The notes under the pieces are model-generated. The model made no database searches. It saw only the letters and a list, made by a program, of their open reading frames with translations, and was not told the origin of the DNA. Shown here in pieces: positions 31,635 through 51,303 of a stretch of 64,000 bases of DNA (position 1 is the stretch's first letter; each line of letters starts with the position of its first letter). The position numbers and the translations under genes are program-made. The DNA is from an uncultured Candidatus Saccharibacteria bacterium (GTDB taxonomy: Bacteria; Patescibacteriota; Minisyncoccia; Phycocordibacterales; DATDWN01): the NCBI GenBank assembly GCA_964426735.1, contig CAYRRP010000002.1, positions 70,582 through 134,581 on the forward strand, given 5' to 3'.

Positions 31635-32351
31635 ATGTTTATGCGATTTCATATTATAAGTCTTTTTCCACAGGCGTTCGACTCCTACATCGGTGAGTCG
31701 ATTATTAAACGTGCAATTGAAGATAAAAAAATCAGCATCTCTTTTTATAATCCACGCGATTATGCTGATGATAAATGGAAACGAGTCGATCAAAAGCCGT
31801 ATGCGGGAGGACCAGGGATGGTGATCCAGGCATTGCCTGTGGCTAAAGCTATTGATGTTGCTTTAAAGTCGGCAGAAAAGAGTCATAAGTCATTAGTAAA
31901 AAAAATACAGAGGTCAAAAAAGAAACTATTGACTCAGGACTGTAAACTGTCTACTAAGATAATTTTCCTTTCGCCTGCTGGAAAACAATTTGATACTCCA
32001 TATGCCAAAAAATCAGCAAAAAAGTACACTGATATTATTATTGTCTGCGGACGCTATGAAGGTATTGATGCTCGTGTACAGAAAATGTTTAAAATGGAAG
32101 AGGTGTCAGTAGGTCCGTTTGTTCTCACTGGTGGAGAGCTTCCTGCACTTATCATGATTGATTGTATTTCACGGCAGGTGGAAGGAGTACTTGGAAACTT
32201 TTCATCACTCGAAGAGACTCGGACTGCAAGTAAAGATTCATATACTCGACCAGAGATTATTGAATATAAAGGAAAGAAATATAAAGTACCGAAGGTGCTT
32301 CTCTCAGGGGATCATAAAAAGATTGAAGCATGGAGAGAAAAACATAAATAA
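31635..32351 (+). CDS. trmD: tRNA (guanine37-N1)-methyltransferase
   Basis: Motif MRFHIISLFPQAFDSY...YAGGPGMV and the SPOUT C-terminus. The start could equally be the ATG at 31641. Confidence 0.85.
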   Translation: MFMRFHIISLFPQAFDSYIGESIIKRAIEDKKISISFYNPRDYADDKWKRVDQKPYAGGPGMVIQALPVAKAIDVALKSAEKSHKSLVKKIQRSKKKLLTQDCKLSTKIIFLSPAGKQFDTPYAKKSAKKYTDIIIVCGRYEGIDARVQKMFKMEEVSVGPFVLTGGELPALIMIDCISRQVEGVLGNFSSLEETRTASKDSYTRPEIIEYKGKKYKVPKVLLSGDHKKIEAWREKHK

Positions 32352-32392
32352 AAAAGACGGCTGGACCTTGGAGGGTCCAGCCATTTTGTTTG

Positions 32393-33244
32393 TTAGAGGA
32401 AGATTGTTTCTCCATCGTACGGCATGTTCACCTGGGCGACTACGTCGTGTGACGCAATTTGTATTCCTGGTGTAAGTACCGATCTGATAAAATCGTTAGG
32501 TATCGGAGGTCCATCACGATGGACAAGTACTAAATGTGTTTTTGCACCAGAAGTGCTTGCGTCACTCCAATGCCCCATTGTTTGATGGACCAGGCCAGGA
32601 TGATTATGCCCGTGCCCTGGCCGGTATCTTTCCTCGCTATCGTATTCCATGTCGAGGATGATCATGTCTGCGTTTTTACTCCATTGTGCAAAATCAGCTT
32701 GATGTTGATGGGTTGCGAGTTCACAATCTGTCGCCACCACAATCGTTTGCCCAAGAGCCTCGATTCGAAATCCTGTAGAAACATCCGAGCCATGGGGGAG
32801 TTCGTAATCGGTTATTTTGACACCATATCTTTGGAATGATGGCAGGTTACTTGGACATACAAACTGCATAGGTATCGGGTGCAGTGGCGGAGACACCAAT
32901 CTGTTCATTTCCATGAGTGCATACTCGGTTATAAGGCACGAGGTGTTTTCCAACATACCAAAAAGGTACTTATTGAATCGGACCCCGATTATATGGTCTG
33001 AGTGTAGATGTGTCTGCAAGAGAATCATCCGTTGAGGTTTTTGTCTAGTCATGAATTCCATGACATTGTGGATGCCGGTACCGTTATCGATAATGATACC
33101 GACCGACAGGTTTTCATTGGTTGCGGGGATGTAAATCCCATAACATGTGGTGAATCCGTTGCGTGGTCCGAAAGGAGAGACTCCTCCAAAGCAAATCTCG
33201 ATCTTTCTTGATAGAGTGTGTACTGCTGAGTGTATGGTGCTCAT
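32393..33244 (-). CDS. MBL-fold metallo-hydrolase (RNase Z-like)
   Basis: HxHxDH motif LLQTHLHSDHIIG. Additional His/Asp ligands are present. Confidence 0.7.
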   Translation of the reverse strand: MSTIHSAVHTLSRKIEICFGGVSPFGPRNGFTTCYGIYIPATNENLSVGIIIDNGTGIHNVMEFMTRQKPQRMILLQTHLHSDHIIGVRFNKYLFGMLENTSCLITEYALMEMNRLVSPPLHPIPMQFVCPSNLPSFQRYGVKITDYELPHGSDVSTGFRIEALGQTIVVATDCELATHQHQADFAQWSKNADMIILDMEYDSEERYRPGHGHNHPGLVHQTMGHWSDASTSGAKTHLVLVHRDGPPIPNDFIRSVLTPGIQIASHDVVAQVNMPYDGETIFL

Positions 33245-33318
33245 TCTGAGTATAAAACTACATTTTTCTGATTTGTTGTCAACAAGTCTGAAATTTCTTA
33301 CAATGATATAATCGATCT

Positions 33319-33954
33319 ATGAATATCACAAAATATGGACACTGCTGTTTGCTTATTGATATTGAAGGGGTAAGGATTCTCACTGACCCTGGTTCGTATT
33401 CAACACTCCAATCAGAAGCTCGGGATGTAGATGTGGTTTTGATTACTCATGAGCATCCGGATCATTTGCATATTGATTCACTTAAAGACGTACTTTCAAA
33501 AAACTCAAATGCACAAGTAGTAACAAATACAAGCGTCGGTAAACTTTTGGAAGCAGAAGGGATTGTGTATCACAACGTCTCACATGGAGAGAAAATAGAT
33601 ATGAAAGGAATTGTAATTGAAGGGTTTGGAGAAAAACATGAAGAAATTTATAAAGATTTTGGACAGGTAGAAAATACAGGATATTACATTGGCGGTAAGT
33701 TTTTCTACCCGGGAGATGCTTTCTTTAATCCAAAAAGACCAGTCGATGTGCTTGCTCTTCCGGTGTCAGGTCCGTGGTGTAGTATTCATGACGCCGTGGA
33801 GTATGCACTTACTATAAAACCACGAATTGCTTTTCCGGTTCACGATGGTTTTACACCACTTCCAGGCTCAGTGCATGGTATTCCAAAAAAATATCTTCCA
33901 GAAGCAGGGATTGATTTTGTGGTGATTGGTGTTGGGGAAACAAAAGAATTTTAA
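33319..33954 (+). CDS. MBL-fold metal-dependent hydrolase (UPF0173-like)
   Basis: Motif LITHEHPDHL (HxHxDH). 211 aa. Confidence 0.7.
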   Translation: MNITKYGHCCLLIDIEGVRILTDPGSYSTLQSEARDVDVVLITHEHPDHLHIDSLKDVLSKNSNAQVVTNTSVGKLLEAEGIVYHNVSHGEKIDMKGIVIEGFGEKHEEIYKDFGQVENTGYYIGGKFFYPGDAFFNPKRPVDVLALPVSGPWCSIHDAVEYALTIKPRIAFPVHDGFTPLPGSVHGIPKKYLPEAGIDFVVIGVGETKEF

Positions 33955-33982
33955 AAAGCACCCTCCAGTGAGGGTGCTTTTG
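33954..33982. terminator. Bidirectional terminator AAAAGCACCCTC-CAGT-GAGGGTGCTTTT
   Basis: Perfect 8-bp stem flanked by A-run and T-run between convergent genes. Confidence 0.8.
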
Positions 33983-33995
33983 GTGTGGGTGTTCT

Positions 33996-34274
33996 TCAGA
34001 GTGTTTTCCAGGGTTTATGGTACTCGCAGAAAGCGAGTTCGTCGACACCATCTGTTTTGTAGACAGCTAGCTGTCCACAGTAGATTGGTCCACTTTGGAG
34101 ATCTTCCGTTGTGTGATAACAACACCGATGTGCTGTTTCGGTGTCGTGTATCTTTCGAAAAGATAAAGATCGATGGTCTTTTTCGATGTCCCTTTTTCTT
34201 AAATCATTTGGCAACCTGAAGTCGCCAGTGAACTGCTTCAGTATCCTCAAGACTTCTGCTTGGGTGGAATTCAT
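33996..34274 (-). CDS. Small Cys/His-rich hypothetical protein (92 aa)
   Basis: AGGAG RBS 8 nt upstream. Motif HRCCYH...YCGQ...FCEYH suggests a zinc-binding site. Confidence 0.45.
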   Translation of the reverse strand: MNSTQAEVLRILKQFTGDFRLPNDLRKRDIEKDHRSLSFRKIHDTETAHRCCYHTTEDLQSGPIYCGQLAVYKTDGVDELAFCEYHKPWKTL

Positions 34275-34368
34275 GTATAATCTCCTGGGTAAATCTTATA
34301 CTAATCTAGTTATTTTAATAATCTTTGTCAATTCAGTTGTTTGCAGACAGACATGATACAATACTCCC

Positions 34369-36024
34369 ATGACTCAAAAGGATGCACTCGAAATTCTAAA
34401 GATGGGACGTAATGTTTTTTTGACTGGTCCAGCAGGAAGTGGAAAGACGTTTGTGCTCAATGAATACATCTCGTATCTCAAACAATCAGGTGTAGAAGTC
34501 GCCATCACTGCATCGACCGGTATCGCATCCACTCATATCAACGGCATGACGATTCACGCATGGTCTGGTCTTGGAATCAAAAGTTCGCTTTCAGACTACG
34601 ATCTAGAGAACATGATGGAAAAGCAGTATCTCTATAAGCGATTTGAAAAAACACAAGTGCTCGTGATTGATGAGATTTCAATGCTTTCAGGAAATCAGCT
34701 TACGATGGTTGAGTGGATTTGTCGTACGTTTAAACATAATGATAAACCATTTGGAGGTATGCAGGTGATACTGTGTGGAGATTTTTTCCAGCTGCCTCCG
34801 ATTACAAAATCTTCTTTTAGCGAAAGTACGGGAAATGATTTTGCATATGAATCTGATGTGTGGAAATTTGCAAAATTTACTATCTGCTACCTCTCAGAGC
34901 AACACCGACAGAAAGATGGGGACTATCTCACCGTGCTTAATCAGATACGATCAAATAAAGTGAGTAAAGATACTATTGAACTTTTACGTTCACGAGAAAA
35001 TGCTGAACCTGATGTTGATGTACCTGCTACAAAACTTTTTACCCACAATGTAGATGTGGACACTATCAATCATAAACATCTTGATACATTAACTTCAGCT
35101 ACAAAAGAATTTAGTATGTCTTCTAAAGGTAAGGACTTTCTCATTGAGGGTTTGAAGCGCTCATGTCTTGCACCAGAGCGTCTACGACTCAAAGAGGGTG
35201 CACGAGTGATGTTTGTAAAAAACAATTATGAAGTTGGATTTGTAAATGGAACTCTTGGTGTGGTTACTGGTTTTAATACGTTTGGTGAGCCGGTGGTGCG
35301 CACAGTGGGAGGTAAGCTTATCTCTGTGGTGCCTATGTCATGGAGTATTGAAGAAGAAGGGAAGATAAAAGCGGAAATCACTCAGCTTCCACTGCGTCTT
35401 GCATGGGCTATTACGGTGCACAAGAGTCAGGGTATGAGTTTGGATGCGATGGAAGTGGATCTCTCAAAGTCTTTTGTGAAAGGGATGGGTTATGTTGCGC
35501 TTTCACGTGTACGTTCGCTTTCAGGTATGAAGCTTCTTGGTTTCAACACGATGTCCTTAGAAGTAGACCCTTCTGTACTTGAGTTTGATGAGGAACTTAA
35601 AGAGGTTTCAGATACTGCGGTAGAGGAGCTCAGAGGTATGTCTCTCGATGAGCGAAAGAAGATTCAAAAAGAATTTCTTTCTCGAGTGGCGCCTGCAGAG
35701 AAAGAGAAAAAAGAACCGAAGAAAAGTGCTCGAGAAATCACCAAAGATATGCTTGCTGAAGGTCTTGGACTTTCTGATATTGCGGATGCACGAGGAGTGA
35801 AGCAAGATACGATCGTGGCGCATATAGAAGAGCTCATCGAAGAGGGTGCAGATCTTGATATTGATCATTTGAAAAAAGAGTTTGCATACAAAGAGCTCGA
35901 TACCATCATTGATGCATTTGATACGTGCGATACCACTACGCTTTCTCCAGTGTATAATTATTTAACGAAGAAAAAGAAAAAACCGACGTATCTTAAATTA
36001 CGAATTGCTCGATTGTTTTTGTAA
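34369..36024 (+). CDS. ATP-dependent DNA helicase, Pif1/RecD2-like (AAA_30 family)
   Basis: Walker A GPAGSGKT. Walker B VIDEISML. Motif ITVHKSQGMSLD. C-terminal helix-hairpin-helix-like tail. Confidence 0.8.
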   Translation: MTQKDALEILKMGRNVFLTGPAGSGKTFVLNEYISYLKQSGVEVAITASTGIASTHINGMTIHAWSGLGIKSSLSDYDLENMMEKQYLYKRFEKTQVLVIDEISMLSGNQLTMVEWICRTFKHNDKPFGGMQVILCGDFFQLPPITKSSFSESTGNDFAYESDVWKFAKFTICYLSEQHRQKDGDYLTVLNQIRSNKVSKDTIELLRSRENAEPDVDVPATKLFTHNVDVDTINHKHLDTLTSATKEFSMSSKGKDFLIEGLKRSCLAPERLRLKEGARVMFVKNNYEVGFVNGTLGVVTGFNTFGEPVVRTVGGKLISVVPMSWSIEEEGKIKAEITQLPLRLAWAITVHKSQGMSLDAMEVDLSKSFVKGMGYVALSRVRSLSGMKLLGFNTMSLEVDPSVLEFDEELKEVSDTAVEELRGMSLDERKKIQKEFLSRVAPAEKEKKEPKKSAREITKDMLAEGLGLSDIADARGVKQDTIVAHIEELIEEGADLDIDHLKKEFAYKELDTIIDAFDTCDTTTLSPVYNYLTKKKKKPTYLKLRIARLFL

Positions 36025-36046
36025 ACAACACATCTCTTTCTCCTCA

Positions 36047-36324
36047 CAAGTCTCTTGGGGCAATCTATCTAGCCCTGGTGGGCTAGCGAACTGCTCGCCA
36101 ATCAAGAAAAATATTTTCGACGTCACATCTCAGAAATAAGAAAGATTACTTCCTTATTTCACTCGAAGTTAGTCGAAATAATCGACTTCTGACGGCTACC
36201 TTCTCGCAAACTCCTCGTTGAGTACAACTTCGTCAAACAGTGCTTCAGGTTACGCCGTCTCACCTGAGTACAGGTGTCAGTCGTAATTTTCTAATTGGCT
36301 GCGCAAGGCCCCAAGAAACTTATG
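36047..36324. repeat. Conserved structured element family 2, copy 1 (long form with ~190-nt variable insert)
   Basis: Outer stem AAGTCTCTTGGGGC / GCCCCAAGAAACTT. Conserved 5' block GCAATCTATCTAGCCCTGGTGGGCTAGCGAACTGCTCG..TCAAGAAAA. Conserved 3' block TAATTTTCTAA..CTGCGCAAGGCC. Second copy at 51169-51303. Confidence 0.65.
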
Positions 36325-36358
36325 ATTCGACGAGATTTGATATACTAGGTTATATATT

Positions 36359-36628
36359 ATGAAAGCTAAAACCTTCACAGAAAAAGTATTTGAGGTGGTG
36401 AAAAAAATCCCGAAAGGGAAGGTTTTGACGTATGGGGAGGTGGCGAAGAGAGCGGGGAATCAAAAGGCGGTGCGTGCGGTGGGAACGATTATGAAGAAAA
36501 ATTTTAATCCAGATATTCCATGTCATCGAGTTATACGTTCTGATGGGAAGGTTGGGGAATATAATAGAGGAGGTGCTACTGTAAAAGAGCGGATTTTGCG
36601 TTCTGAGGGTTATGTAGCGTATAATTAA
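36359..36628 (+). CDS. ogt: Methylated-DNA--protein-cysteine methyltransferase, short single-domain form
   Basis: Active-site PCHRV motif and the MGMT DNA-binding fold (YGEVAKRAGNQKAVRAVG). Confidence 0.8.
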   Translation: MKAKTFTEKVFEVVKKIPKGKVLTYGEVAKRAGNQKAVRAVGTIMKKNFNPDIPCHRVIRSDGKVGEYNRGGATVKERILRSEGYVAYN

Positions 36629-36653
36629 CACATATTAATTTATATATTATTTT

Positions 36654-37088
36654 ATGACTGATTTTATTGGATTGATTAAATTACTTAGTTTACCAGCTCT
36701 GTTGGGAGGTATCGTATTATTTGTCTTTGGATATCTCTGGTATTCAGTTGTATTTAAAAAGTATTTTATGAAGCTTCGAGAGGAGGCGGGTATGATAGGG
36801 GAAGCTCCCACTAAACAGCAGATGATCAAAACTCTCGGTATTAAGCTCATCCTCGATATCCTTACTGCTGCATCATTTACTCTTGTGGCATATCAAGCGT
36901 TATCATATCGTGTTACTGCACTTATTACATTTGTTATATGGATTGGGTTTACTTTCCCATCAATCATGAGTGCGTACCTTTGGGACAACCGATCATTTAA
37001 ATACACAGCATTTGAAATCATATTCAGTCTCGCATCGTTTGCTGTGCTTGCACTCGCAATACGGTCTATATTTTTTTATCTAATGTAA
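36654..37088 (+). CDS. Integral membrane protein (4 TM), function unknown
   Basis: Hydrophobic ORF. Confidence 0.5.
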   Translation: MTDFIGLIKLLSLPALLGGIVLFVFGYLWYSVVFKKYFMKLREEAGMIGEAPTKQQMIKTLGIKLILDILTAASFTLVAYQALSYRVTALITFVIWIGFTFPSIMSAYLWDNRSFKYTAFEIIFSLASFAVLALAIRSIFFYLM

Positions 37089-37097
37089 AAAATTGGT

Positions 37098-37544
37098 ATG
37101 AAGTATTGGCTCATCAAAAGTGAACCAGATTGCTACTCAATAGACGACTTAAAACAAGACAAGGTGACTTCGTGGACTGGTGTGAGAAATTACCAAGCGC
37201 GTAATTTCATACGCGACATGTCCAAAGGAGACCTTGTTTTGTTCTATCACTCTGGAGCAAACCCTCCGGCTATTGCAGGTATCTGCACAGTGGCAAGTGC
37301 TCCGTACGGAGATATAACTGCACTCGATCCAAAGAACGATCACTTCGATCCGAAAGCTACAAAGGAAAATCCAATCTGGTCTGCAGTCGATATGCAATAC
37401 GTAAAGACTCTCAAAGAACCTGTTACTTTGCCTCAAATCAAAAACAACCCAAAGCTTTCCGACATGCTCGTTGCTCAGCAGGGAAGTCGGCTCTCAATAA
37501 TGCCGGTGAGTGAGAAGCATTTTAAGCTTGTTTCTGGAGTTTAA
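37098..37544 (+). CDS. EVE (PUA-like) domain protein
   Basis: Motif MKYWLIKSEPDCYSIDDL and DLVLFYHSG. Its 3' end is duplicated at 40091-40139. Confidence 0.8.
   Translation: MKYWLIKSEPDCYSIDDLKQDKVTSWTGVRNYQARNFIRDMSKGDLVLFYHSGANPPAIAGICTVASAPYGDITALDPKNDHFDPKATKENPIWSAVDMQYVKTLKEPVTLPQIKNNPKLSDMLVAQQGSRLSIMPVSEKHFKLVSGV
37480..37528 (+). repeat. Direct repeat 1 (49 nt, 48/49 identical to 40091-40139), comprising the 3' end of the EVE gene
   Basis: Sequence AGGGAAGTCGGCTCTCAATAATGCCGGTGAGTGAGAAGCATTTTAAGCT. Confidence 0.8.
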
Positions 37545-37605
37545 ATTCAAACCTTTACATATAATGATACGTGTGGTATCTTATTTTTAGGAGGCGTACA
37601 TCGCT

Positions 37606-38208
37606 ATGAAGCTATTAACCAGGGGAAGTCGTAATGCTTTCTCATGCGTTCTCATTGGATCTGCTTTATTGATCCTTTTTGGGTTGGTAATCGACAAAAG
37701 TCAGCCACCCGTCGGTGAATTCTGGAAGACCACGTCTACAATCTTTCAACTTGTGGGTATCGGAACTGTCATTTTTGCAGGAATCCTGCTCGACTGGGTT
37801 CCTGTCACTTCGTTGGACCTGTACCAGGCTCTCCAGCAGACTGTTCGTGATGATGAAAAGATGTTTGCTATGATGGAGGGAGTGATAGTTAAGCAGGTTA
37901 AGTTCTTACAGATGACGGTTCTGGAGAAACTCGATTATACATTCTTTCTACTGAATGGTATCGGGCTCATCATCTACGCCGTCCGTGATTTTCTTGGAAT
38001 GATACCTGAAATAGTAATTCCTATGGCAAACAGCGATCGATTTGTGGTGTCGCATTGGGCAAGTGCCCTGTTTACTTTTCTCATTGCGGTCGTCTGTTTT
38101 CTACTTGCGCACACAGTGCGTATGAGATTCACAGACAAGTGGGAAGAGCGTTTCAAGATCTTATTGAAGGAGGTCGAGGATGACCTAGGGAATCTTCCGA
38201 GTCGGTAG
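37606..38208 (+). CDS. Membrane protein (4-5 TM), function unknown
   Basis: Hydrophobic ORF inside the direct-repeat-bounded island. Confidence 0.5.
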   Translation: MKLLTRGSRNAFSCVLIGSALLILFGLVIDKSQPPVGEFWKTTSTIFQLVGIGTVIFAGILLDWVPVTSLDLYQALQQTVRDDEKMFAMMEGVIVKQVKFLQMTVLEKLDYTFFLLNGIGLIIYAVRDFLGMIPEIVIPMANSDRFVVSHWASALFTFLIAVVCFLLAHTVRMRFTDKWEERFKILLKEVEDDLGNLPSR

Positions 38209-38228
38209 TTCTTGTACAACAAAAAATA

Positions 38229-38327
38229 GTGGGCGAGGTCTGAGATCTCGCCCTTCTATCAAAGTATTTTTTAGAAGAATATTTTGATGGGAGTAAAATC
38301 CACGTTCTTTAAAAGGAGAAAAACCAT
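38229..38327 (+). repeat. Leader module 1: GGGCGAG hairpin + conserved TGGGAGTAAAATCCACGTTCTTT-AAAGGAG leader
   Basis: Near-identical module repeated at 39157-39257. Both lie immediately 5' of XRE-family genes. Confidence 0.6.
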
Positions 38328-39138
38328 GAAAGCAACGAGAAGTGTATTAATTGGCTTTAGGAAACAGCACGGTCTTTCTCAACAAGAATTGGGAAGACGA
38401 GTTGCATATCAAATGGGTTTAGGATGGTCCGATGTGGCTTGTCAGAAACGGATTTCCAACTGGGAGTCTGGATCATCTGAGCCGAATGAACAAGAGCGAA
38501 GTGCGCTAGCCAAAGTCCTTGGGGTGACTCGAGAGCAAATCGACGCAAATCTAGGGAAGACATCTCAGGACAGCATATTCCATTGGTTGGCGAGAGATGA
38601 TGCGGAACCTTCATTTGTAGGAATCTGCTGCACTTCGGGCCCAAGGGAAATACATGATATGGGAATGTTAAGTTCTCTACAGAAGGGTATCGCTGCTGGA
38701 AAAATTTCGGTCGCGATGTTTATTCCTGGGAACCGCATTCCAGACACTGGTATTGATAGTGGTATACTAAATGGTCATATCGCTGGTGTTGAAAAGGATG
38801 TAATAGAATACTACCGGTGTTTGGTTGCTTCTTCGAAAGATACCTGTGATCGAGTACAGGTGTATCAACCAACGATCAATCTTTCGATGCCGTTTCCGCC
38901 GATGATGAGTTGTAATTATCTCATTGCATATCGCGACAGAGGTACGGTTCAATCAAGGGTGTATTTCTGGGTTCGCACGGCGCGCTTCGATGATCTAATG
39001 CTTGTTGATGCTGATCATACGCCACGGACTAGCATTTGGCAACACTACTTTGATCCAGTTTTCAGCACTTGGTACAACAAAAAAGTGCTTTCTAGCGGAG
39101 GTGGGTTTTGGAAATCAACTCCGATTGCAAAGCTGTAG
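38326..39138 (+). CDS. XRE-family HTH transcriptional regulator with uncharacterised ~190-aa C-terminal domain
   Basis: Motif LSQQELGRRVA...ISNWESGSSEPNEQERSALAKVLGV (Cro/C1 HTH). RBS AAAGGAG. Start set at MKATRSV. Confidence 0.65.
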   Translation: MKATRSVLIGFRKQHGLSQQELGRRVAYQMGLGWSDVACQKRISNWESGSSEPNEQERSALAKVLGVTREQIDANLGKTSQDSIFHWLARDDAEPSFVGICCTSGPREIHDMGMLSSLQKGIAAGKISVAMFIPGNRIPDTGIDSGILNGHIAGVEKDVIEYYRCLVASSKDTCDRVQVYQPTINLSMPFPPMMSCNYLIAYRDRGTVQSRVYFWVRTARFDDLMLVDADHTPRTSIWQHYFDPVFSTWYNKKVLSSGGGFWKSTPIAKL

Positions 39139-39156
39139 TATTTCTGTTCTCTTTGG

Positions 39157-39257
39157 GCGAGTCTGTACGACTCGCCCTTCCATTCAAGATTATTTTAAAA
39201 AGTAGTTTTGAATGGGAGTAAAATCAACGTTCTTTTGAAAGGAGGGAGAGGTTAATG
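39157..39257 (+). repeat. Leader module 2 (duplicate of module 1)
   Basis: Hairpin GGGCGAGTC-TGTAC-GACTCGCCC followed by ATGGGAGTAAAATCAACGTTCTTTTGAAAGGAG. Confidence 0.6.
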
Positions 39258-39992
39258 AGTATTCTCGATCATGAAATTATGAGACGGCTCTCGTTTAATC
39301 AAGCGGAGTTGGCGCGTATTCTTCGCATAACAAGGCAGGCGGTCTCAATCGGTATCAAAAAGGAAGAGTCGTATCTGAGTAGTAACAATCTTCTTAGAAT
39401 CTACGACACATTCATTATTTACGGAGACCGACGAGCTCAAATTGTTGAGGAAATATTAAAGAAACAGTTTGGCGTCACGCCGAATTATCAGACCCCTTCT
39501 AGCATAAGTAGTAGCCCAGAGGGATGGCCTGAAGCAGAAGAAGTGTGGTTATTTGCGGAGAATCCGCTTGAACTCACAATTCCTGCACATGCTTTCCTTA
39601 TGAGAAAGCAATTTGCGTCCGCTGAAAAAACTATTGTGTATTTCGTTGGAACACCAAATATCGGTCATCAGCTCGCTCAACGTTTGAGTTACGAAGTCGG
39701 AGCAGTTAATCGGGAAGGAAAGCAGTCTGCCAAAATCTACATCGTTCACTGTACGAGTATGGTGATGATAATGAGTTGTATCTTCTTCAACCCTCGAACA
39801 CAGGTGAAGGGATATTTCAAAAACAGAGTAGGAACCTTCACGATGATGCCTGAGCAGGAATCACGATCTATATGTAGCGCTATCTTGACTGCTGGTGTGC
39901 GTGTCGAAGAAAGTAATTTTTTTCCTCAAGGAACAAGTAGTTCAGTTCTGTGGAATGGTCTGTTTTTTGAGGTTATTCATCAGTTCAAATGA
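39255..39992 (+). CDS. HTH (XRE-like) regulator with uncharacterised C-terminal domain
   Basis: N-terminal segment LSFNQAELARILRITRQAVSIGI (HTH). 245 aa. Confidence 0.6.
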   Translation: MSILDHEIMRRLSFNQAELARILRITRQAVSIGIKKEESYLSSNNLLRIYDTFIIYGDRRAQIVEEILKKQFGVTPNYQTPSSISSSPEGWPEAEEVWLFAENPLELTIPAHAFLMRKQFASAEKTIVYFVGTPNIGHQLAQRLSYEVGAVNREGKQSAKIYIVHCTSMVMIMSCIFFNPRTQVKGYFKNRVGTFTMMPEQESRSICSAILTAGVRVEESNFFPQGTSSSVLWNGLFFEVIHQFK

Positions 39993-40090
39993 TTATTTCG
40001 TCGTACTTGTTTGAAGCCACCTCAAGAGCCGCTCGCTCCTCGGGCGGTTTTTCTTTTGCAAAATCTTGTATGTTTTATTGTAAGCGTGGA

Positions 40091-40139
40091 AAGGGAAGTC
40101 GGCTTTCAATAATGCCGGTGAGTGAGAAGCATTTTAAGC
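40091..40139 (+). repeat. Direct repeat 2 (copy of the EVE gene 3' end), retains an open frame ...GSRLSIMPVSEKHFKLII*
   Basis: 48/49 identity to 37480-37528. Confidence 0.8.
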
Positions 40140-40149
40140 TCATTATCTA

Positions 40150-40171
40150 AAATTCCCCTAGGGGAATTTTA
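40150..40171. promoter_or_regulatory. Perfect 22-bp palindrome AAAATTCCCCTAGGGGAATTTT (operator or terminator-like); half-site GGGGAATTTTA recurs at 40578-40588
   Basis: Self-complementary 22-mer immediately after DR2 and upstream of the RHH gene promoter. Confidence 0.45.
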
Positions 40172-40226
40172 GTATGCATAACTGGGTAAAGTTATCCACG
40201 TCATAGGTTGGGCTTATGGAAAACAG

Positions 40227-40255
40227 TTGACTTATTTGTATAAGTGAAGTATTGT
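40227..40255 (+). promoter_or_regulatory. Sigma70 promoter TTGACT-17-TATTGT for the RHH gene
   Basis: Consensus -35 with optimal spacing. Confidence 0.55.
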
Positions 40256-40278
40256 CACGGTAGGAAAGGGGGTAAATA

Positions 40279-40488
40279 ATGCCAAAAAACCTATGGAAAA
40301 TAGTGCAAATTAAAATGCACGAAGAGGATCTCCGGCGCTTAAATTTACTCGCTATAAAAGACAAGACAAGTGCGGAGTATCAGATTCGCTTTGCTGTGCA
40401 AGAACACTTGGCACAAAGAAAGTCTGATCTAGAACAACCCAAAAAAACTAATTCCAAAAAAGTACTCAACTTCAGACCTAAGAATTAA
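40279..40488 (+). CDS. Ribbon-helix-helix (CopG/Arc/MetJ-like) DNA-binding protein
   Basis: N-terminal beta-strand plus two helices (KIVQIKMHEEDLRRLNLLAIKDKTSAEYQIRFAVQEHL). RBS AGGAAAGGGGG. Confidence 0.55.
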   Translation: MPKNLWKIVQIKMHEEDLRRLNLLAIKDKTSAEYQIRFAVQEHLAQRKSDLEQPKKTNSKKVLNFRPKN

Positions 40489-40878
40489 ATTGCCTATACT
40501 CAAGATATAATTTCAATTTTGCAGTAAAGAAGTTGCCCGCAAGTCAAGTCATCCTAAGAGGTGGCTTTTATTTTTCCTGGGGAATTTTAAGTCCTGCTAT
40601 TGAAGAGATGAAGTGGGTGCCGTAGAATTATATTGATAAATAGATTACTGGTTTTGGTCGGCAATTTTCTGTATCTGAAAGAAATATGAGATGTATACGT
40701 ATATAACTGTGCTTGCCCGCCGTAGCTCTTTTATAAAGTGCAAAAGTGGGGATAACTCGCTTGACGTGTAGGGTGTGAAATAAGCAGTTTTTTTGGTAAA
40801 TTACGTTTCTGTTGAGCCATTATTTGTCGAAAAAAGATATACACAGCTTTTCTTGACTTTTATTTGCTTATTTGAATG

Positions 40879-40908
40879 TTGACAGAGGCACCGTCTCTAC
40901 CGTATACT
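40879..40908 (+). promoter_or_regulatory. Sigma70 promoter TTGACA-18-TATACT upstream of rpoB
   Basis: Consensus hexamers about 185 nt upstream of the rpoB start. Confidence 0.65.
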
Positions 40909-41019
40909 GTATCTTAACTTCGGCAAAAGCGATTGAGTCATGGCCATGTCGCGGAAGGGGCATTACAAAACAGTCTCTTTACTATTTTGCATACTATTCG
41001 CAAATAACAACTTAAGAGT

Positions 41020-41060
41020 AAAAAACAAACCTTTGGGGAAAGGTTTGTTTTTGGTGTTTT
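41020..41060 (+). promoter_or_regulatory. Leader attenuator/terminator hairpin AAACAAACCTTT-GGGG-AAAGGTTTGTTT + T-run, 30 nt upstream of rpoB
   Basis: Perfect 12-bp stem with a GGGG loop, followed by TTTTGGTGTTTTGTAATTTTTTT. Lies between the promoter and the rpoB start codon. Confidence 0.6.
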
Positions 41061-41090
41061 GTAATTTTTTTATGAGGTATTTATTAAATA

Positions 41091-44000
41091 GTGCACAAAA
41101 ACATGTCGCAACACACAACGCACAACGGTCCACGACCTAAAAAGTTTTTCGGACGGTTCAAGAAACCGCTTGCAGAAACACCAAACTTCGTTGAGCCACA
41201 GCTCGACTCATTTAAATGGTTGATAGAAGAAGGTCTTAAAGAGGTCTTTAAGGAATTCTCTTCTATTAAAGATTACTCAGAGAAAAAATTCCAGCTTGAT
41301 TTTACAGGCTTCGAATTAGCGTTACCTAAGTATGATGAATATCATGCAAAGGAAAACAAACTTTCATACGAAGCTCCACTTAAAGTAAAAGTGAAGCTCA
41401 AGAATCATATCGTTGGTTCAGAAAAAGAGCAGGAAATCTTCATGGCTGATTTCCCACTTATGACATCTCACGGTACCTTTATTATCTCAGGTATTGAGCG
41501 TGTTATCGTACCTCAGCTTGCTCGTTCATATGGAGTATTCTTTACTGCAAATGAAGTGCGCGGACGCCGACTCTTCGGTGCAAAGGTAATCCCAGGACGA
41601 GGAGCATGGGTAGAAGTAGAGTCAGATGCAGACGGAGTGATCTATGTACGTATTGACCGAAAACGAAAGTTCCCGGTATCAACACTTCTTCGAGTATTTG
41701 GTGCTCACACTGATTCTGATATCAACAAACTTTTTGCTGATAATGAATTTGCTAAACAATCTATTGCTAAAACAATTGCAAAAGATACCGCAAAGACAAT
41801 CGAAGATGCATACATCGAAATTCACAAACGACTTCGAGATGGAGACTTGGCAACTGCTGAAAACGCAAAGGAATTTGTCGATGCACTTTTCAACGAAGAG
41901 CGATACGACCTTTCACCAGTAGGACGTTTCCGATTCAACCAGCGATTTGGTAAAAAACTCGATGAAAAAGAAAAAGCACGAAAAACTCTCTCTATAGATG
42001 ATATTGCGACTATCGTCACTCATATTGCCCACCTCAATAACACCCCACACTCACAGCCAGATGATATCGATCACCTTGGTTCACGACGTGTACGATTTGT
42101 TGGAGAGCTCTTCCAGCAGAAAATCCGAGTTGGTATGGCTCAGATCAAACGAAACATTCAAAACCGAATGTCTACTATTGATACTGATGTGACATTGCCA
42201 GTTCAGTTTATCTCACCGAAACCACTTCAAGCGAGAATCAAAGAATTCTTCACCACAAACCAGTTGTCACAATTCATGCTCCAGGAAAACCCACTTGCAG
42301 AAGTGGAGCATTTGCGAACACTCTCTGCGCTTGGTCCGGGAGGTTTGAACCGTTCTCGAGCAGGGTATGAAGTACGTGACGTACACCACTCTCACTACGG
42401 ACGACTTTGTCCGATCCATACACCAGAAGGTCCAAACATTGGGTTGGTACTTCGTCTTTCAGTGTATGCTCGATTGAATCACTTTGGAATGATTGAGACT
42501 CCGTATGCAAAAGTAAAGAATGGAAAAATTACTGCAGATATTGCATATCTTAATGCGTCTGAAGAAGAAAATTTTGCTATTGCTCACGCCGCAACACGAT
42601 ATGATAAAGAAGGAAATATTCTTGAAGATGTTGTAGAAGTGCGTATCAACGGTGAACCATCAACAATTGATAAAACAAAAGTTGATTATATTGACGTTGC
42701 GACAAACCAGGCGTTTTCTATTGCAACAAACATGATTCCGTTTGTAAACCACAACGACTCTACTCGAGCGCTGATGGGATCAAACATGCAGAAACAAGCA
42801 ACACCGTGCGTGGTACCAGAAGCTCCACTTGTAGGAACAGGTATCGAAGAGTCAGCGGTGAAAGATACAGGACGACTCGTACTCGCGACTGAAGCAGGAA
42901 CTGTCTCATATGTAGATGGAGGTTTGATTAAAGTAAAAAGCGAAAAAGGAAAAGAGACTGAATACAAGTTGGTAAAATTCTCACGAACAAACGGCTTTAC
43001 CGCATTCCATCAGCGACCTTCAGTCAATGTAGGTGATACGGTAAAGAAAGGTAGTGTACTTGCAGATACCTCAGCATCAGAACATGGACAAATGGCAATC
43101 GGTCAAAATATCTTGATTGCATTCATGTCATGGTCTGGTTCAAACTATGAAGACGCGATTATCCTTTCAGAACGACTTGTAAAGAAATCTAAATTTACTT
43201 CAATTCATATTGAAGAGTTTGTAGTAAATGTGCGAGATACAAAACTTGGTCCAGAAGTAACAACTTGCGATATTCCAAACGTAGGTGAAAGTAAACTCAA
43301 AAACTTGGCAGAAGACGGTATTGTACGAGTCGGTGCTGAAGTGCGACCGGGAGATATTTTGGTTGGAAAAGTAACTCCAAAAGGAGAAACACAACTTACT
43401 CCAGAAGAGCGTCTCCTTCGATCACTTTTCGGTGAAAAGGCAAAAGATGTAAAAGATACATCAAAACGAATGGAAGGTGGTAAACGAGGGCGAGTAATCA
43501 ATGTACAAGTATTCTCACGAGAAAAAGGAGATAAACTTGATTCAGGTATCATCAAACGAATCCATATTGAAGTTGCAGAACTTCGAAATGTATCTGTAGG
43601 TGACAAGCTCGCGGGACGACACGGAAACAAAGGAGTTATTTCAAAGATTCTTCCAGAAGAAGATATGCCGTATATGGCAAATGGTACTCCAATCGACATG
43701 ATTCTTACACCACTCGGTGTGCCATCACGTATGAACTTGGGACAGATTCTTGAGCTTCACTTGGGTCTTGCAGCAAATACATTAAACTATCAGGCAATCG
43801 TACCTCCATTTGCAGGTGCGACCGATACTGAAATTAAAGATGAACTTGTAAAAGCAGGCTTCCCAGCTACCGGAAAGATTCCATTGTATGATGGACGAAC
43901 AGGAGAAAAATTTGAACAAGATATTGCGGTTGGATATATGTATATCTTGAAACTTCACCACATGGTTGAAGATAAGATTCACATGCGATCAATCGGGCCA

Positions 44001-51168: not shown

Positions 51169-51303
51169 GCTTTGTAACTTTTTAGAGGCAATCTATCTAG
51201 CCCTGGTGGGCTAGCGAACTGCTCGTCGTTCAAGAAAATTATAGACCGAATACAGTCTTAATTTTCTAAACTCCTGCGCAAGGCCTCTAAAAAGTTACAA
51301 AGC
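51169..51303. repeat. Conserved structured element family 2, copy 2 (short form)
   Basis: 21-bp perfect outer stem GCTTTGTAACTTTTTAGAGGC / GCCTCTAAAAAGTTACAAAGC. Encloses the same conserved blocks as 36047-36324, including the CTAGCCC-TGGT-GGGCTAG hairpin. Confidence 0.65.

Follow-up and report, generated by a model that had tools for sequence, protein, structure and literature searches.

How does a gene come to have a second copy of its own 3' end 2.6 kb downstream, with other genes in between? The question is raised by a 64-kb stretch of contig CAYRRP010000002.1 from an uncultured member of the Patescibacteria (hereafter the window), in which the last 49 nt of the conserved coding sequence of an EVE-domain gene recur beyond a 2.6-kb island, as we term the segment between the two repeat copies. 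The Patescibacteria or candidate phyla radiation (CPR) have tiny genomes with few recognizable mobile elements, and the mechanisms of gene flow among them are poorly charted. An initial annotation of this DNA took the repeat for the scar of a site-specifically integrated element. The repeat itself stands, and the topology is the one that an insertion through a single crossover within the 3' end of EVE would leave; however, the site proves to be a variable islet whose cargo is old at the locus and occurs there in relatives without any repeat, and no phage, plasmid or recombinase could be linked to it, so that the site-specific nature of the integration is an assumption. Judged by sequence comparison, a hypervariable islet of accessory genes lies between EVE and rpoB across a Candidatus Zambryskibacteria (Patescibacteria) clade, and the 2.6-kb segment is the form that it takes in this genome. 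We hold with moderate confidence that the repeat is a recent recombination scar joining two alleles of the EVE locus within this islet, most likely made by RecA-dependent recombination and not by a dedicated integrase.

A second EVE end with a different tail

Homologues of its EVE protein assign the window to Candidatus Zambryskibacteria. The comparison set consisted of 12 related loci, of which L004-L009 are genome representatives, and L090-L093, L098 and L104 were obtained by exact-protein look-up; the same look-up with the EVE protein of the window returned no record. Loci numbered in the same series outside this set are named where they share parts of the island. The features that define the repeat are as follows:

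37098..37544, plus strand: EVE-domain gene, 148 aa, ending in …KHFKLVSGV and a stop (Pfam EVE, E = 1e-56; orthologues 83-94% identical in Zambryskibacteria metagenome-assembled genomes)
37480..37528, plus strand: direct repeat 1 (DR1), the final 49 nt of the conserved EVE coding sequence (repeat search); homology is lost at its right edge, 37528, between the window and L090 and between L005 and L007
40092..40140, plus strand: direct repeat 2 (DR2), the second copy of the EVE 3' end (repeat search); over 60 nt, this copy and its tail match the EVE end of L004 at 93% identity
40141..40172, plus strand: remnant tail …LII (stop codon 40148-40150) and the overlapping 26-nt perfect palindrome (40147-40172), taken as the native end of an EVE allele and a terminator-like hairpin

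The repeat search recovered the one-mismatch, 49-nt direct repeat reported in the initial annotation, with the second copy lying one position further on than the 40091-40139 given there. DR1 and DR2 are identical at 48 of 49 positions; a C at 37493 faces a T at 40105, and 35 matching bases follow. A blastn-short comparison of the EVE tail with the 6 kb downstream gives E = 5e-22, and the repeat is therefore not a chance match. The duplicate does read on to a new stop, as had been claimed: DR2 continues in frame within a 53-aa open reading frame (ORF; 39989-40150) to …KHFKLII and its stop codon. The intact EVE gene thus carries one tail, and the DR2 remnant carries a differing one that is joined to the downstream flank.

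The match of DR2 and its tail to the L004 EVE end is interrupted by one single-base indel. The order of DR2 followed by a small gene of the ribbon-helix-helix (RHH) type is the native order in L009, where an RHH gene (82% amino-acid identity) directly follows the EVE stop. Together, these two matches indicate that DR2 is the true end of another EVE allele, with its native downstream context. In L005 a terminator-like hairpin likewise stands directly after the EVE stop. The EVE tails of the clade form a continuum (LVSGV, LISGL, LISKL, LIVG, LITS, YIVD). We had considered two clean tail classes, A and B, as proof of element-borne versus native tails, and softened this view, since the tails are graded and L098 joins an LIVG-like remnant to the same promoter and membrane-protein cassette that follows EVE in the window.

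Over this stretch the other species depart from DR2 at 2-6 positions, whereas the two copies in the window are set apart by a single mismatch in 49. If the remnant dated from the time when the cargo settled here (see below), a non-coding sequence of this kind would have accumulated far more changes; the event that made the repeat is therefore recent. We looked for a repeat of the own EVE end in L004-L009 and L090-L093 and found none; the window alone has one. The arrangement that would have spoken for an ancient tandem duplication, namely relatives sharing it with diverged repeats, was likewise not encountered, as no relative has the duplicate.

EVE itself seems dispensable in this clade: in L098 the gene is reduced to a remnant of ~25 nt (…GCATTTTAAGTTGATTGTAGGGC; L098 1448-1480), with the end point of the deletion falling inside the 49-nt core, and in L007 (10150-10219) it is broken by ~69 nt with an early stop.

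The EVE-rpoB interval is a hypervariable islet

Between the repeats lie three plus-strand genes, coding for a 200-aa membrane protein (memb) and for proteins of 270 aa (HTH1) and 245 aa (HTH2), named for helix-turn-helix (HTH) regions. Together with the stretches that separate them, they make up the following series:

37529..37583, plus strand: the LVSGV tail of EVE with its stop and the promoter PA (TTTACA-17-TATCTT with an upstream TG), the predicted driver of cassette 1 (promoter scan)
37606..38208, plus strand: cassette 1, memb, an orphan membrane protein of 200 aa (four hydrophobic segments; orthologue with 78% amino-acid identity at the L098 locus)
38221..38325, plus strand: D2 copy 1, comprising the terminator hairpin GGGCGAGGTCTGAGATCTCGCCC, a promoter (TTTAGA-18-TAAAAT) and a ribosome-binding site (RBS) (repeat and promoter scans)
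38326..39138, plus strand: cassette 2, HTH1, 270 aa, with an XRE-type HTH and an uncharacterized alpha/beta C-terminal domain (HTH_3, 29.1 bits)
39155..39254, plus strand: D2 copy 2, a diverged paralogue of copy 1, 77% identical over 52 nt (repeat and promoter scans)
39255..39992, plus strand: cassette 3, HTH2, an orphan of 245 aa with an HTH-like N-terminus (4 clusters among 5.8 billion proteins)
40026..40091, plus strand: T2, an intrinsic terminator (stem 40033-40047 with a T-run) together with a promoter-like stretch that loses its -10 region to DR2 (sequence comparison and promoter scan)

All 12 related loci keep the order pif1-MGMT-DUF1761-EVE-[variable]-rpoB-rpoC, with a different cargo in each variable stretch:

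L004: ORFs of 221, 67 and 58 aa
L005: one small ORF after a terminator hairpin
L006, L007, L008: proteins ending in a domain like the C-terminal domain of RpoA
L009: an RHH gene
L090 (4452-5700): IS1595 transposase and D12 adenine methyltransferase
L091: ORFs of 306 and 274 aa
L092, L093: EVE, promoter, HTH1
L098: EVE remnant of ~25 nt, promoter, memb (78% amino-acid identity), 306-aa ORF, HTH1 (75% amino-acid identity, frameshifted), T2
L104: three small ORFs

Since the interval differs in all 12 loci, the site is a hypervariable islet and not a constant site with one inserted element. Genes of the island occupy the same locus in L098, L092 and L093 without any repeat, and three further loci (L086, L087, L088) have the series D2, HTH2 (87% amino-acid identity) and T2. 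Between the window and L098, nucleotide identity is 77% over memb and HTH1, 79% over pif1 and 71% over MGMT and DUF1761; with the cargo as diverged as the core flanks, it looks like an old resident of the locus and not like a recent arrival from outside the clade.

The alleles also part at one place. L005 and L007, with pif1 genes 94% identical, nonetheless lose all homology immediately past '…CATTTTAA(A/G)CT' and do not regain it until upstream of rpoB, and the window and L090, which show only two differences in the final ~120 nt of EVE, diverge at 37526-37528. In both comparisons the breakpoint comes directly after …CATTTTAAGCT. The right edge of the repeat is thus the general end of allele homology, that is, the end of the conserved EVE domain (…EKHFK-L). 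To the left of it, identity between the window and L090 over 32130-37545 is mosaic, with blocks of 98-100% beside blocks of 65-77%, both within and between genes, which points to frequent homologous exchange between diverged lineages.

Several observations on these loci stand apart from the repeat. Relative to L090, the window carries an additional minus-strand gene of the metallo-beta-lactamase fold (32393-33244). L090 has the most similar EVE protein (94%), and there the EVE stop is followed by an IS1595-family insertion sequence (IS) transposase, a D12-class N6-adenine DNA methyltransferase and the contig end; the EVE-rpoB site accordingly also receives IS and methylation genes, beside a reader of modified bases (EVE). 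The stand-alone proteins like the RpoA (alpha-subunit) C-terminal domain that lie next to rpoB map to L006 4304-5155, L007 10630-11520 and L008 10795-11409; PF03118 matches those of L008 (E = 3e-17) and L007 (E = 4e-9), and the L006 ORF was recognized by reading its sequence.

Single-gene cassettes and the modules that join them

As read from these sequences, the islet is a set of independent single-gene cassettes, each with a predicted promoter and terminator of its own, joined by the conserved modules PA, D2 and T2. The PA stretch is kept after EVE in L091, L092 and L093, up to window position 37578-37583; in L098 it is conserved from the equivalent of 37553 onward, and PA and memb there come after the differing EVE tail remnant. 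D2 consists of the hairpin GGGCGA…TCGCCC, with compensatory changes in mid-stem, and a following ~45 nt that hold the TTTAGA-18-TAAAAT promoter and the RBS. The 64-kb window has no copies of it beyond those before HTH1 and HTH2. Elsewhere it was found at L004 7144-7252, L006 5182-5257, L008 11439-11512, L086 60-146, L091 6841-6892 and L098 2160-2226 and 3257-3281. Its core is 94-100% identical in five other species, at L004, L006, L086/L087, L091 and L098, where it stands ahead of unrelated genes, compared with about 80-85% for the EVE genes of these loci and about 77-85% for the surrounding genes. D2 would accordingly be either a strongly constrained promoter/operator or a stretch of homology used for cassette exchange. 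One match to a D2 19-mer in a 105-kb contig of the IMG/VR virus database was discarded as chance, the similarity being confined to the 19-mer. T2 is common to L004, L006, L086/L087, L098/L099 and L104, and precedes other cassette genes in L004 and L104.

The description of the cargo as a membrane protein and two XRE-family regulators is borne out for the first two genes. Memb has its four hydrophobic segments, with no match in Pfam, PHROG or PADLOC. HTH1 matches HTH_3 (PF01381) at 29.1 bits against a cut-off of 23. For HTH2 the XRE label lacks a significant Pfam match (the best, MarR_2, has E = 0.028); its sole profile match in the Protein Data Bank is an immunity repressor at E = 0.24, and its structure model is poor (predicted local distance difference test, pLDDT, 47).

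HTH1 belongs to a small family of 49 representative clusters at E up to 1e-10, mostly full length. HTH_3 is matched by 28 of 37 family members, and the C-terminal alpha/beta domain has no Pfam model. Sequence and fold matches of HTH1 include the P22 C2 repressor and the C proteins of restriction-modification systems. Its AlphaFold2 model (pLDDT 66.6) gives weak matches to the phospholipase-D (PLD) fold of PPK1 and PssA (E about 2e-3, template-modelling score, TM, about 0.25), which are a lead only. We rejected paralogy of HTH1 and HTH2: BLASTP gives E = 12, and hhalign a probability of 2.6% with 18 HTH residues aligned. PADLOC assigned none of the three proteins to a defence system; its matches are weak and at the level of the HTH alone (RmrA, E = 5e-4).

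Single cassettes do move, to judge from a homologue of HTH2 (75% identity) that sits in an unrelated context in L084 (400-4435), between a divergently oriented 786-aa protein with Lectin_C, Big_5 and PG_binding_1 domains and, following the homologue, a 186-aa orphan. L085 has the same gene pair, with a weak D2-like stretch between both genes.

How the junction was made

If two alleles of the locus were joined by the recombination machinery of the host, allele 1 would be an EVE gene with the LVSGV tail followed by the cassette array, and allele 2 an EVE 3' end with an LI… tail followed by the terminator palindrome and the RHH gene. The order seen in the window could then have arisen by a single reciprocal exchange within the 49 nt, or by the joining of an allelic fragment at one homologous and one illegitimate end. 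In the latter case the left edge of DR2 would be the illegitimate junction, cutting the promoter module of T2. In either case the DNA acted upon would probably have come from a closely related strain.

Two mirror-image routes can be drawn. The first would be homology-facilitated illegitimate recombination (HFIR), a process documented in naturally transformable bacteria (de Vries and Wackernagel 2002, as cited in PMC6382021): an incoming fragment with the EVE end, the palindrome, the RHH gene and further DNA up to rpoB would have been anchored in rpoB or upstream of it and joined illegitimately to the T2 cassette of the resident array. By the second, the cassette array would have entered an RHH-type chromosome through a crossover in EVE. 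HFIR could have had its anchor in rpoB or in EVE; the alternative to it would be a single crossover of the Campbell type within the 49 nt of homology.

The left junction itself has features of an illegitimate joint. DR2 starts at the exact place expected for the -10 region of the T2 promoter, and the similarity between the window and L004 to the left of DR2 ends at ~40089, within the promoter-like T2 module. The purine-rich motif AGGGAAG at this junction resembles the RBS of the L004 cassette (GAAAGAGGAAG), so that microhomology through AGGGAAG is possible. We favour host recombination because the islets have no recombinase, no other EVE-end repeat exists among the relatives searched and there is no trace of a phage, plasmid or integrative and conjugative element (ICE), and further because the flanks are mosaic and the left junction truncates a regulatory module in the AGGGAAG motif. 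With host machinery as the probable agent, the segment would not be an autonomous mobile element.

Several points weigh against this explanation. In well-studied bacteria a near-perfect repeat that regenerates a gene's 3' end usually comes from a site-specific recombinase, and to our knowledge few cases of Campbell-type or HFIR events with so tidy an outcome have been documented in nature. The donor allele and the microhomology at the left junction are both putative. Both directions fit, either the array entering an RHH-type chromosome or a fragment with the EVE end and the RHH gene entering an array-bearing chromosome. The survey for recombinases took in 64 kb of the genome, which leaves room for one encoded elsewhere. 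Finally, a foreign element would also agree with the G+C content of the island (43.2% against 40.7 ± 1.5%, at the 95th percentile) and with that of third codon positions (GC3), which is 0.40-0.51 compared with 0.27-0.35 for core genes; tetranucleotide usage is unremarkable in its distance, and the compositional foreignness of the island is weak.

The leading alternative, which we regard as rather unlikely, is an integrase-less element that entered the EVE 3' end site-specifically and kept its attachment sites attL and attR, having lost or never had an integrase, and that was mobilized in trans. It would resemble a satellite or a cis-mobilizable element (CIME), the latter being defined as an element without integration and transfer genes that has both attL and attR (PMC5704250). 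Such an origin would account well for the geometry, which is the classic one of attL and attR with a regenerated gene end and a displaced original tail, for the near identity of the copies as the mark of a recent event, for the sites without island genes in L005 and L009, and for the raised GC3 just described. It would also fit three separate breakpoints that fall in or at the 49-nt stretch, namely those of the window repeat, the end of the L098 EVE deletion and the points of allele divergence. The evidence opposed to it is broader. Neither the island nor any related islet yielded a recombinase, and nor did a scan of 35 window ORFs, in agreement with the integrase absence already noted in the initial annotation; family scans found no recombinase domain in the three island proteins, and no recombinase fold was seen in the structure models, where the fold search was that of the HTH1 model and the HTH2 model is poor. 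Remnants of conjugation, replication or phage modules are absent from the island, its DNA matches nothing in phage or plasmid records, its proteins have no relatives in IMG/VR, and no related autonomous element turned up in the collections searched. Although the other loci have left ends and cargo homologous to those of the window, attL/attR-like repeats are missing from them; in relatives the cargo keeps its synteny and has diverged in step with the flanks; and the left edge of DR2, where it truncates the promoter module, looks accidental.

Mobile forms were sought through the four junctions that the 49-nt core (O) allows: B-O-P' (37470-37540) and P-O-B' (40080-40150), as in the window; B-O-B', with EVE joined to …CTCATTATCTAA, as at an empty site; and P-O-P', with …GCGTGGAA, the core and TGTTTCTGGAG…, as in a circle or tandem. 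Neither an attP-type junction nor the 49-nt core occurs in IMG/VR, and a 19-mer across the P-O junction gave three unrelated chance matches only in the Joint Genome Institute (JGI) metagenomes. No conspecific empty site was found among the Logan contigs with the RHH flank. Sites of the empty type in relatives, the check proposed in the initial annotation, do exist in part: L009 has the RHH gene directly after EVE, and in L005 the EVE-rpoB gap is 926 nt, compared with 935 nt in the window minus the island. However, both loci belong to other species, and the whole EVE-rpoB interval lacks homology from one relative to the next.

Could the arrangement be an artefact of assembly or of a mixed population? 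Two strains might have been merged, or a 2.6-kb circle (P-O-P') and a chromosome with uninterrupted EVE-RHH might have been threaded into one path. The source is metagenome-assembled, and the integrated order is given by the NCBI contig alone. Three independent Logan assemblies (SRR14271366, SRR14271372, SRR14271373) carry the island without a mismatch, including the junction of its right end with DR2; a molecule joining this end to the EVE fragment therefore exists, and a simple two-allele chimera cannot explain the data. These assemblies are k = 31 graphs, and their contigs, those with the island and those with the RHH gene alike, all end inside the repeat, a graph effect compatible with an integrated form as well as with a circle plus an empty site. 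Nevertheless, the repeat of 49 nt is shorter than typical reads and than the large k-mers of metagenome assemblers, and the lone mismatch phases each copy with its left flank. Because the repeat is this short, the NCBI contig is probably correct, and we consider an artefact improbable.

The same compatibility with a circle, together with the three breakpoints in or at the core, is the basis of a more speculative idea, to which we give equally little credence: the EVE-rpoB islet could be a cassette-exchange system without a cassette-encoded integrase, in which the three-cassette block is, or recently was, a free circle (P-O-P') that moves into and out of the chromosome by crossing over at the core, and in which D2 and T2 would serve as further sites for a putative trans-acting recombinase. 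An old local duplication of the EVE end that had nothing to do with how the cargo arrived, its copies having stayed alike through chance or gene conversion, is very unlikely: few parts of EVE are indeed as well conserved between species as the 49-nt stretch (88-96%), but a non-coding copy of that age should have diverged by far more than 1 in 49, no relative has the duplicate, and the tail of DR2 matches a different allele class and not a decayed resident tail.

Comparison with known systems

Of the described systems, flexible genomic islets are like the locus in their fixed place between core genes (here EVE and rpoB) with content that varies among relatives, in the loss of homology exactly at the ends of the conserved flanks, in mosaic flanks and in orphan cargo without mobility genes. 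They are unlike it in two respects: ordinary double-crossover replacement does not leave a 49-nt repeat of the flank end, and the cassettes of the window are joined by unusually conserved terminator/promoter modules of ~50-100 nt (D2, T2).

With CIMEs (PMC5704250) the island shares repeats derived from the 3' end of a protein-coding gene, the lack of integration and transfer genes, small size and regulator-type cargo. The defining trait of retained attL and attR with lost mobility genes is present, and a simple recombination scar satisfies it equally. In contrast to CIMEs, the island has no related autonomous element, helper integrase or second repeat-flanked site that could be found, and its cargo has co-diverged in relatives.

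For CPR bacteria we know of no described ICE or integrative and mobilizable element (IME) system.

HFIR (PMC6382021) also has one homologous and one non-homologous junction and adds DNA by means of an anchor, and the possible purine-rich microhomology (AGGGAAG) would suit the latter junction. It normally deletes recipient DNA, however, and is not known to leave a gene-end duplication; the donor, the microhomology and the competence of this organism are putative. Integron cassette arrays resemble the islet in having single-gene cassettes in one orientation with conserved junction sequences. In the window, in contrast, there is no intI, attI or attC-type imperfect palindrome, and the junction modules are instead terminator hairpins with promoters, so that the cassettes are predicted to be self-expressed.

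The scar is thus of the insertion type, at the EVE 3' end, in a clade-specific cassette islet: an ordinary kind of feature in an unusual host. The locus is a small, well-delimited hotspot beside the RNA polymerase genes at which accessory genes are swapped between lineages as single-gene cassettes with their own predicted expression, and in the window it retains a fresh junction, a record of the way in which such a swap took place. If a recombinase made this junction, it would point to a new integration system in the CPR; if RecA made it, it would show that genes can be acquired additively in nature by way of very short homology. The cargo consists of orphan proteins, including an XRE-HTH family with an uncharacterized domain and, in relatives, the proteins like the C-terminal domain of RpoA.

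The flank toward rpoB and a candidate structured RNA

Beyond DR2 the window continues with one further small gene:

40279..40488, plus strand: small RHH-like gene of the native flank (RHH_1 15.4 bits, below the cut-off of 20.5; the L009 gene has 82% amino-acid identity)

Its assignment to the RHH family is therefore weak. The initial annotation had listed this gene and the palindrome just beyond DR2 in its account of the element; as L009 shows the same adjacency, both belong to the native flank and are not part of an element. The palindrome (CTAAAATTCCCCTAGGGGAATTTTAG) measures 26 nt and not 22 bp, is perfect, spans 40147-40172 so as to overlap the stop codon of the remnant, and is absent from L009. 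The 64 kb contain just three copies of a 10-mer, GGGGAATTTT, and these bracket the RHH-like gene: the palindrome holds one on each strand (40161-40170), and the third is at 40579-40588. Palindrome and 10-mer may be an operator or the boundary of an RHH cassette.

Upstream of rpoB, ~340-430 nt are kept in all relatives at 78-91%. In the window this region has a near-consensus promoter (TTGACA-18-TATACT, 11/12; 40879-40908) and a hairpin with a perfect 14-bp stem (AAAAACAAACCTTT/AAAGGTTTGTTTTT; 41021-41052) that ends 39 nt before the rpoB start. Promoter and hairpin may form an rpoB leader or attenuator. The window is otherwise occupied by housekeeping genes (aminoacyl-tRNA synthetases, GyrB, DnaE, NusB, RNase III, SMC, RNase R, TrmD, RpoB/C, DnaG, RpoD and others). 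It has no tRNA or tmRNA gene, and no Rfam family was detected across 36000-42000.

A conserved intergenic element of ~240-310 nt, here called X, lies on the minus strand of the window at 36032-36342, with a partial copy at 51187-51297. Its copies in relatives are:

L004 4700-4936
L091 8015-8316
L007 11564-11806
L008 11775-12014
L006 5656-5715 and 6180-6263
L086 1050-1125
L098 4172-4224

In the window and L004, X sits between pif1 and MGMT, in opposite orientations, and these genes overlap by 4 nt in L090, L091 and L098; in L006, L007, L008 and L091 it sits between the islet and rpoB. Rfam gives no match to X even at a threshold of E = 10, and IMG/VR none to its core motif. From five copies, RNAalifold derives a predicted fold of 80 pairs, with compensatory double changes at 28; the fold has a terminal helix of ~30 bp, and variable hairpins are inserted at two points. 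The strand was assigned from invariant G-U pairs, by which X runs with rpoB in the relatives and on the minus strand in the window. On this covariation model, X looks like a structured RNA of a new kind.

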